Below are positions 28,758 through 29,531 of a stretch of DNA of 64,000 bases, piece after piece. The notes below the pieces were generated by a model. It did not search any database. It was not told where the DNA came from and was given only the letters and a program-made list of their open reading frames with translations. The position numbers and the translations under genes were made by a program. Source of the DNA: Shigella phage SP18; the sequence record GQ981382; one strand, given 5' to 3'. Numbering within the stretch: position 1 is the first letter of the stretch; each line of letters starts with the position of its first letter.

Positions 28758-28771
28758 CTCCACTACTTGAG

Positions 28772-28779
28772 TATAAATA
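28772..28779 (+). promoter_or_regulatory. late promoter TATAAATA upstream of the second HNH endonuclease gene
   Basis: gagTATAAATAtagtatatcaccaAAGAGGAcatacaATG; exact late consensus and Shine-Dalgarno. Confidence 0.6.
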
Positions 28780-28805
28780 TAGTATATCACCAAAGAGGAC
28801 ATACA

Positions 28806-29531
28806 ATGAATTATGCTTTAATATATGAGAATTTAATGAACCGAGCCAAATCTAGAAAATTGACTGGATACAAAGAATCTCACCATGTTGTTCCTCAATG
28901 TTTAGGCGGACCAGATACAAAAGAAAACCGAGTTGATTTAACGCCGGAAGAGCATTATCTAGCACATCAACTATTGGTAAAAATTAATCCAGAACATAAA
29001 GGATTGAAATATGCTGCCTATATGATGACTATATCACCAGATGGTCGCCGACAGAATAATAAATTATTCGGTTGGTTAAAGAGAGATTACTTAAACAATA
29101 GAATTCAATCATCCGGAATGAAAGGGAAAAAGCATAAACCCGAATCAATTCAATTGATGAAAGATAAACGTGCTCTCCAAAAAATCACCGAAACAACTAA
29201 AGCCAAAATATCTAAAACAAAAACTGGTGTAAAATTTACAAAAGAAGCACTAAAATCATTTAATGAAAAACGTTCCGCAAACCAAGCATGGATTGATTCC
29301 AATTTTAGGCCATGTAAAGAAAGCACCAAATCTAAAATTGGCGATGCCAATAGGGGTCGTGTTTTTGATAAAAAGACCTGCCCTCATTGTGGTAAAACTG
29401 GAGCAGGCCCTAATATGAAACGGTATCATTTTGATAATTGCAAATCAAAAGTCGCCAAATGCAACCTGCCAGCATTCAACACCAATACGACGCCACATCT
29501 CGACAACGTTTTGCCTATCGTCAACGGCTAA
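28806..29531 (+). CDS. HNH homing endonuclease, paralog of 5581-6276
   Basis: [10 protein letters not shown]...[44 protein letters not shown] parallels the first HNH ORF; C-terminal CPHCGK Zn-finger-like motif; 3' end overlaps the pseT 3' end on the opposite strand. Confidence 0.85.

Follow-up and report, generated by a model that had tools for sequence, protein, structure and literature searches.

Shigella phage SP18 (sequence record GQ981382) carries, directly beside its pseT gene, an open reading frame (ORF) for an HNH endonuclease, and we investigated this gene and its surroundings in a stretch of 64,000 nucleotides (nt) of the genome. This whole stretch is referred to as the window, and window coordinates are used throughout. 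The nearest match of the region is phage P479, with 97.5% identity across 2.1 kb, and the region is nearly identical to that of Gaprivervirus phages, the T4-type coliphages of the VR7 group. The following features lie at the locus:

28548-28745, minus strand: cd.4 homologue, the left neighbour of the endonuclease cassette, assigned by phrog_2360, the VR7 annotation and junction alignment
28752-28773, plus strand: target-like motif CCACATCTCCACTACTTGAGTA, 22 nt, which abuts the late promoter and runs 2 nt into it
28772-28779, plus strand: exact copy of the TATAAATA consensus of T4-type late promoters, 26 nt before the ATG
28793-28799, plus strand: Shine-Dalgarno sequence AAGAGGA, 6 nt before the ATG of the HNH gene
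28806-29444, plus strand: HNH endonuclease core (codons 1-213), with an N-terminal HNH domain, a NUMOD3-type helical linker and a C-terminal CxxC...HxxxC module
29445-29531, plus strand: 3' tail of the HNH ORF (codons 214-241 and TAA), codon-in-phase antisense of the pseT stop and last 28 codons
29445-30350, minus strand: pseT, polynucleotide 5'-kinase/3'-phosphatase, the presumed target (Pfam HAD_PNKP, 4.8e-56; AAA_33, 7.6e-21)
29445-29527: right arm of the proposed mobile unit, comprising the pseT stop and last ~27 codons, with a haplotype boundary at the DDR codons
29502-29517: recoded pseT block (codons R-Q-N-V-V-E), with 10 fixed differences in 16 nt between carriers of the HNH gene and HNH-free phages

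The HNH ORF (28806-29531, plus strand) is intact and runs for 241 codons from an ATG to a TAA stop. The first-pass annotation had let the feature begin at 28767, which is merely the most upstream TTG of an ORF called mechanically. A late transcript could not be translated from this TTG, as it stands 5 nt upstream of the promoter. The exact late promoter octamer and the AAGAGGA Shine-Dalgarno sequence described there were both verified in the sequence at the positions given above. Within the window TATAAATA occurs 13 times, against 4.98 +/- 2.16 expected (0 of 100 shuffles reached 13), with most copies standing 25-40 nt upstream of ORFs, and we infer a late-promoter function for the copy at 28772-28779. 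Throughout the minus-strand block from 15.6 to 44.7 kb, the HNH gene is the only plus-strand ORF of at least 100 residues that is not nested in a longer minus-strand ORF; therefore, it needs a promoter of its own. Its neighbour, the pseT orthologue, carries the pseT label in the VR7 annotation. The two genes overlap tail to tail by exactly 87 nt (29445-29531), so that the antisense 3' overlap previously proposed is real, although its length had been put at ~85 nt.

The HNH protein matched the PHROG family phrog_655, labelled 'homing endonuclease', at 1.8e-63 over residues 1-230, and T4 MobE (mobE locus) with 31.6% identity over residues 1-218 (90% coverage, E value 2e-23). Its HNH motif aligns to the HNH domain of EcoKMcrA (profile E value 2.7e-4) and to that of IscB, and residues H26, H27, N41, H50 and H54 are invariant or nearly so across 17 homologues. 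In the AlphaFold2 model, residues 1-70 are confident and contain strands at 24-27 and 42-45 followed by a helix at 47-60, with a predicted local distance difference test score (pLDDT) of ~90; for residues 224-241 the pLDDT is below 50. Pfam NUMOD3 is matched by this protein at 22.4 bits (cut-off 20.4), and also by a second HNH protein encoded next to uvsW, to which we return below. A single-sequence search of solved structures returned only marginal HNH matches (E value ~0.07), I-HmuI, expected as the nearest solved relative, was absent from its results, and fold searches contributed little. The His-Asn-His motif places the protein, on sequence grounds, in the HNH (beta-beta-alpha-metal) superfamily, and its matches argue for membership in the T4 MobE-like free-standing HNH family, phrog_655.

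To assess how closely the gene is tied to pseT, we checked its genomic context in 13 lineages, namely Gaprivervirus, Salmonella phage KM16, ten metagenomic lineages and the jumbo Erwinia phage Kaldavass (366 kb). In all 13 the HNH gene stands directly 3' of the PNKP gene and convergent with it, at 55-98% protein identity. In every lineage, too, a promoter of the form [T/C]ATAAATA or TGTAAATA precedes the start codon by 21-37 nt; AAGGAG or AGGAG Shine-Dalgarno sequences are kept in the cassettes of the other lineages, and an AGGAG-type site is present in 13 of 13. The overlap with the PNKP gene is far more variable, at 87, 36, 35, 25, 20, 9 or 4 nt depending on the lineage, and the database relatives of 55-81% identity are 215-227 residues long. 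The association between the HNH gene and pseT is thus, on these comparisons, old and strict.

The variable overlap bears on the origin of the 28-residue tail that the window protein carries inside pseT. In the window, the TAA stop of the HNH gene is the antisense of a Leu TTA codon of pseT, and in other lineages the length of the overlap is set by the first in-frame stop on the pseT antisense strand. Homology to relatives extends as far as residues ~213-218 (..HFDNCK(S)K), a limit that coincides exactly with the pseT stop codon. Across the 84-nt tail in seven carriers, all five variable sites are nonsynonymous in the HNH frame and four of the five are synonymous in pseT. Substitution pattern and end of homology together therefore suggest that the tail is an incidental product of reading through into the pseT antisense strand and shows no sign of selection, and the overlap itself appears to be the by-product of a cassette without a stop codon of its own. 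Functional dual coding of the 87-nt overlap, in which the tail is selected, for example for DNA binding or for anchoring the enzyme to the locus, would agree with a tail that is intact and of the same length in all seven Gaprivervirus carriers, and with the shorter tails of similar beginning (..KVAKxxLPxL) in KM16 and L026-L028. However, this similarity is accounted for by antisense reading of the conserved pseT C terminus, the tail ranges from 0 to 28 residues across lineages and is predicted to be disordered, and the homology with every other relative halts at the pseT stop codon. We rejected a selected tail on the substitution pattern, and regard dual coding as extremely improbable.

The interval between pseT and cd.4, in which the HNH gene lies, is occupied differently among the phages compared:

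CJ20, VR20, VR26 and others: slot empty, with the pseT stop overlapping the cd.4 start codon
DK-13: a 66-residue ORF
P896: a SegD-like GIY-YIG gene, co-oriented with pseT
window, P479, 212, PSD2001, TH40, TH57, VR7 and VR25: the HNH gene, on the opposite strand

There is thus a presence/absence polymorphism at one precise site, and most close relatives are without the HNH cassette. In Moonvirus, all that sets KM16 apart from CF1 and Moon is the cassette, together with the first ~80 nt of pseT. Sliding identity between the window and VR7, TH40 and TH57 is 95-100% over the cassette, whereas 100-350 nt further, in pseT at 29600-29800, it is only 52-57%; the element is more conserved than its flanks and incongruent with them, which points to lateral spread. 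Among seven carriers, the 639-nt HNH core contains 20 variable sites, of which 16 are synonymous and four nonsynonymous, which shows purifying selection on the core. The incongruence between cassette and flanks and the excess of synonymous sites indicate that the gene is functional and has recently moved between diverged backgrounds. A chance ORF was rejected on the intact reading frame in seven phages together with the 16:4 ratio.

VR7 and VR25 annotate the orthologue as a putative mobile nuclease or homing endonuclease, similar to T4 MobE and RB32 ORF054w, and VR7 ORF236w is 97.5% identical to the window protein, at the same site and with the same 87-nt overlap. In the closest relatives of the window, P479 (L005) and PSD2001 (L008), the HNH ORF, at 3447-4145 in both, is unannotated and leaves a 'gene-free' gap of 700 nt; the antisense overlap with pseT is probably the reason why gene callers drop it. 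This is a real ORF, which records such as those of P479 and PSD2001 ought to include. Our literature search for a pseT-associated HNH element or for the VR7 ORF returned nothing specific on target, mobility or promoter motif.

Further differences surround the slot. Within Gaprivervirus, central pseT (29600-29800) exists as two very different alleles with 52-57% nt identity, and the gene to the left of cd.4 (28400-28600) also exists as two alleles, with 65-72% identity, in surrounding DNA that is more than 90% identical; local mosaicism next to the endonuclease slot is strong. A small variable ORF of 61-66 residues occupies the slot in DK-13 (L004, 1939-2139), L016, L017, L019, L159 and L161, and is possibly the counterpart of T4 cd.5. 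Its last ~12 nt (TGGAAAACTTATGA) resemble the left junction of HNH carriers (TGGAACCCTATGA) and that of the SegD carrier, which hints that the HNH and SegD cassettes both replaced it. Where the slot is empty, translation of cd.4 is coupled to that of pseT (TAATG), while in HNH carriers the cassette parts the two genes by 700 nt. The carrier cd.4 (start at 28745, minus strand) has only weak, poorly spaced GGAG/GGAA sequences upstream, at 28746-28760, and cassette insertion may thus lower its expression.

The orientation of the HNH gene raises the question of what its transcription does to pseT. The terminator scan gave nothing convincing downstream of the HNH ORF and no plus-strand terminator-like site before ~31591 (weak minus-strand hairpins at 29467-29449 and 29351-29324 were not relied on), so late antisense transcription across pseT is plausible. 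The main role of the locus might even be regulatory, with a late antisense RNA shutting down pseT, and perhaps upstream genes of the early operon, and with the HNH ORF secondary or domesticated. Such a role would agree with the run of plus-strand sequence free of predicted terminators and with a gene that is convergent with pseT and overlaps it in 13 of 13 lineages, and the Edgell review points out that endonuclease promoters on the opposite strand would yield antisense transcripts (PMC2988022). Yet the overlap is only 4 nt, stop against stop, in several lineages, so that a long overlap has not been conserved; purifying selection acts on the HNH core, whose catalytic residues are invariant; and, with the cassette missing from most close relatives, the distribution is that of a selfish element and not of a conserved regulator. 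We therefore consider a mainly regulatory role very unlikely, and return to the gene as a mobile endonuclease.

We compared pseT between seven HNH carriers and seven endonuclease-free Gaprivervirus genomes, which represent two very different pseT backgrounds (A and B). In addition to the recoded block at 29502-29517, fixed differences between carriers and free genomes are found at the stop codon (29446) and at positions 29457-29458, and beyond ~29527 the pseT sequence tracks the background and not HNH status. In Moonvirus, pseT of the carrier KM16 is 100% identical to that of the HNH-free CF1 and Moon beyond ~80 nt from the stop, and 60-78% identical before this point. In both Gaprivervirus backgrounds (A and B) and in Moonvirus, the boundary thus falls at the DDR codons, so the last ~27 pseT codons appear to move with the endonuclease gene. 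The DDR motif at this conversion boundary is conserved across PNKP homologues.

The recoding concerns the pseT motif DDR-xx-VVEMW, in which xx is TQ, SQ, AQ, NQ or DQ in HNH-free T4-like phages; the TQ-type codons read ACTCAAGTAGTT. In three carrier lineages xx is QN, DT or NS, with QN in the window. Every carrier's own pseT has lost part of an ACnACYTG core that both the HNH-free alleles and the promoter-proximal motif keep. The recoded block is a candidate immunity or co-conversion block.

Phage P896 (L003), whose SegD-like gene lies at 1943-2662, has a pseT with the recoded block of HNH carriers (QN; identical across the stretch that corresponds to 29475-29540) and without the HNH-type changes close to the stop. 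This suggests that P896 was once an HNH carrier, in which the cassette was exchanged for that of another endonuclease.

A second trace of the presumed target lies at the promoter. Read on the minus strand, CCACATCTCCACTACTTGAGTA encodes ..TQVVEMW.., corresponding to pseT codons ~280-286 of endonuclease-free phages. It agrees with the HNH-free pseT allele L014 at 20 of 22 positions, and with the recoded pseT of the carrier itself at 14 of 22. The window contains the pattern CCACATNNNNACNACYTGA once, where 0.00 occurrences are expected. The motif is found at the same place by the promoter in 10 of 13 lineages, at a spacing fixed within 0-3 nt, and the DNA further upstream is unalignable. Its invariant positions, CCACAT, AC, AC and TG, are those fixed by pseT codons. 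The CGGTC(R)TC part is missing from this half-site, and the promoter stands in its place. We rejected the idea that the motif is kept by an overlapping minus-strand ORF (MSSLVIYYIYTQVVEMWNPM.., 28548-28802), since the corresponding frame in KM16 stops before the neighbouring gene, so coding constraint does not explain it.

A sequence that resembles the predicted homing site, overlaps the promoter and lacks the cleavage part is what I-TevI-type autorepression looks like at the sequence level. By this analogy the motif may be a half-site operator that the enzyme can bind and not cut, and through which it would repress the late promoter; we hold this tentatively, at somewhat less than an even chance. 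Conservation of the motif across ~40% protein divergence favours a function. It could instead be a neutral insertion scar, that is, the original 3' end of pseT displaced in the founding insertion and without a regulatory role, for which the odds fall just short of even. The motif is co-linear and co-oriented with pseT and so forms an imperfect direct repeat with the recoded block, much as a 17-nt direct repeat of the host gene's end stands on either side of the uvsW-linked paralogue; it has been lost in three of the 13 lineages; and between the window and the L030 lineage it agrees at 14 of 22 positions (hand count), which we judged not above coding DNA at such divergence. On the other hand, a neutral 22-mer should be unrecognisable between lineages that are ~60% identical in protein, and the DNA directly upstream of the motif cannot be aligned. 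The invariant positions following the pseT codon pattern and the fixed spacing to the promoter also speak against a scar, as does a layout that matches the experimentally shown I-TevI operator (PMC2988022).

Altogether, we propose, with a probability of roughly 80%, that we are dealing with a free-standing cassette for a MobE-family HNH homing endonuclease, which has specialised on the 3' end of pseT. The mobile unit would comprise the target-like motif, the late promoter, the Shine-Dalgarno sequence, the HNH ORF and the recoded last ~27 codons of pseT. Because the HNH gene lies on the strand opposite the long early-gene block, its transcription would be restricted to the late phase and would start at its own TATAAATA promoter (T4 gp55-type). 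The enzyme would bind pseT of co-infecting endonuclease-free relatives around the DDR-TQVVEMW codons, where the predicted antisense recognition sequence in naive pseT is CCACATyTCnACnACTTGnnynCGGTCrTC, and would nick or cut near the DDR codons, and recombinational repair would then copy the cassette into the recipient. Recoding (TQ to QN in the window) would render carriers immune. The stopless HNH ORF would read in phase into the pseT antisense strand to the first Leu TTA, giving an unconstrained 28-residue tail, and the unrecoded half-site at the promoter, without CGGTC, would be either an uncleavable autorepression operator, as for I-TevI, or an insertion scar.

Several observations weigh against this proposal. 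The Pfam and NCBIfam scan of the HNH protein gave no HNH-domain match, none of the Pfam HNH models reaching an E value below 0.01, and the family placement therefore rests on PHROGs, the T4 MobE similarity and the profile matches to solved HNH domains. P896 has the recoded block and no HNH gene, and the block could be mere linkage to an ancestral donor allele and not immunity. The position and polarity of the target are deduced, with comparative patterns as their sole basis, and three of the 13 lineages are without the promoter-proximal motif. Some copies are probably decaying: in the metagenome contigs L028 (2871-3552) and L029 (SRR14654594, SRR14654852), a 7-nt tandem duplication (GCGAAAAGCGAAAAGCC) close to the 5' end has shifted the reading frame of an HNH copy 81% identical to the window protein. 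In these contigs the gene caller gives a 196-residue GTG-initiated remnant, and the promoter and most of the target-like motif are kept.

The second HNH gene in the window served as a comparison gene:

5581-6276, plus strand: paralogous uvsW-linked HNH gene, whose TTG start overlaps the uvsW stop codon

The pseT-linked gene had been described as a second, paralogous HNH gene that shares its N terminus with the uvsW-linked one, and pairwise alignment bears this out. BLASTP gave 72 identities in 200 (36%, E value 3e-38), tblastn also matched the pair, and 37 of the first 60 residues of the alignment are identical by hand count; the uvsW-linked protein matches phrog_655 at 6.9e-57. The paralogues have the catalytic domain and linker in common and unlike C termini, that of the uvsW-linked protein showing a weak match, below the curated cut-off, to the DNA-binding part of TIGR01453. 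The first-pass annotation had concluded from the similarity that the family has spread within this genome. This is not the likeliest reading, as the pseT-linked gene has relatives of 55-81% identity at the same pseT site in other phages, closer than its 36% identical paralogue with a different C-terminal module. The two genes therefore appear to be separate site-specific lineages. A recent intragenomic duplication of the uvsW-linked gene was rejected on the 36% identity and the different C-terminal modules.

The uvsW-linked gene has features of its own. It is bracketed by an exact 17-nt direct repeat, ATTAAACAGGTGGAAAT, at 5561-5577 and 6256-6272, as a result of which uvsW and the uvsW-linked HNH protein both end in ..IKQVEI*. 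The repeat supplies a GGTGGA ribosome-binding site both to the uvsW-linked HNH gene, whose TTG start overlaps the uvsW TGA, and to the next ORF (ATAATG..MKSFEEIMYEAS), and it looks like a target-site duplication from insertion. Inside the same HNH ORF, an exact TATAAATA at 6010-6017 (plus strand) may be an embedded late promoter for downstream genes, by analogy with several T4 seg/mob genes.

The pseT-linked HNH gene is thus a further MobE-type free-standing homing endonuclease, already annotated as such in VR7, and the anatomy added here leaves the basic classification, a MobE-like selfish element, unchanged. It is tempting to go further and to see a pseT-dedicated HNH clade that ranges from coliphages to jumbo Erwinia phages and moves as one self-contained module, in which three devices are linked, a wider reading that we find rather doubtful. 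The first device would be the antisense orientation with its late promoter. The second would be the recoded target end, which would keep pseT functional and immune and supply the endonuclease with a stop codon, and the third an uncleavable promoter half-site for self-repression. If true, I-TevI-type autoregulation would extend to free-standing HNH elements, and the enzyme would be predicted to recognise a core of ACnACYTG, set in CCACATnnnnACnACYTGA, and to nick at the DDR codons. The locus amounts to a natural experiment in compact form, with one slot that is empty, HNH-occupied or GIY-YIG-occupied, and its sharp conversion boundary, recoded target end and promoter motif offer a testable recognition site, immunity and a possible operator in a Mob-type family with few characterised members. 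A 2010 review of T4 mobile elements flagged Mob-type mobility and regulation as open questions (PMC2988022).

Among known systems, T4 MobE, whose gene lies between nrdA and nrdB, is of the same family. It nicks nrdB next to its own insertion site and co-converts flanking sequence (PMC2790892). The pseT-linked gene resembles it in being free-standing between two genes, with a presumed target in the adjacent conserved gene and putative co-conversion of the flank. The mobE gene, however, has an internal terminator and no promoter, and it is co-oriented and co-transcribed with nrdA (PMC2790892), whereas the pseT-linked gene lies on the opposite strand with its own late promoter, ends inside the presumed target gene, carries that gene's recoded 3' end and has a target-like motif at its promoter; its activity is predicted only.

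In orientation the gene is closer to T4 segD, a GIY-YIG gene between genes 23 and 24 that, alone among T4 homing endonuclease genes, runs opposite to its neighbours (PMC2988022). In contrast to the pseT-linked gene with its conserved late promoter and Shine-Dalgarno sequence, segD is without a recognisable promoter and is thought to be barely expressed, and the SegD-like gene of P896, although it occupies the same slot, is co-oriented with pseT.

Endonuclease-specific promoters in T4 are middle or late and never early (PMC2988022), and I-TevI, together with I-TevII and I-TevIII, belongs to the T4 endonucleases with late or middle promoters. These three are intron-encoded and co-oriented with their host genes, whereas the pseT-linked gene is free-standing and antisense. 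The operator of I-TevI resembles its homing site (15/20 identity), overlaps the late promoter and lacks the cleavage part (PMC2988022). The pseT-linked gene shows a similar layout, with a TATAAATA late promoter overlapped by a putative homing-site-like sequence without the cleavage part, in the window 20/22 identical to HNH-free pseT. I-TevI and I-TevII are GIY-YIG enzymes, whereas the pseT-linked enzyme belongs to the HNH type, and binding and repression at its promoter are putative.

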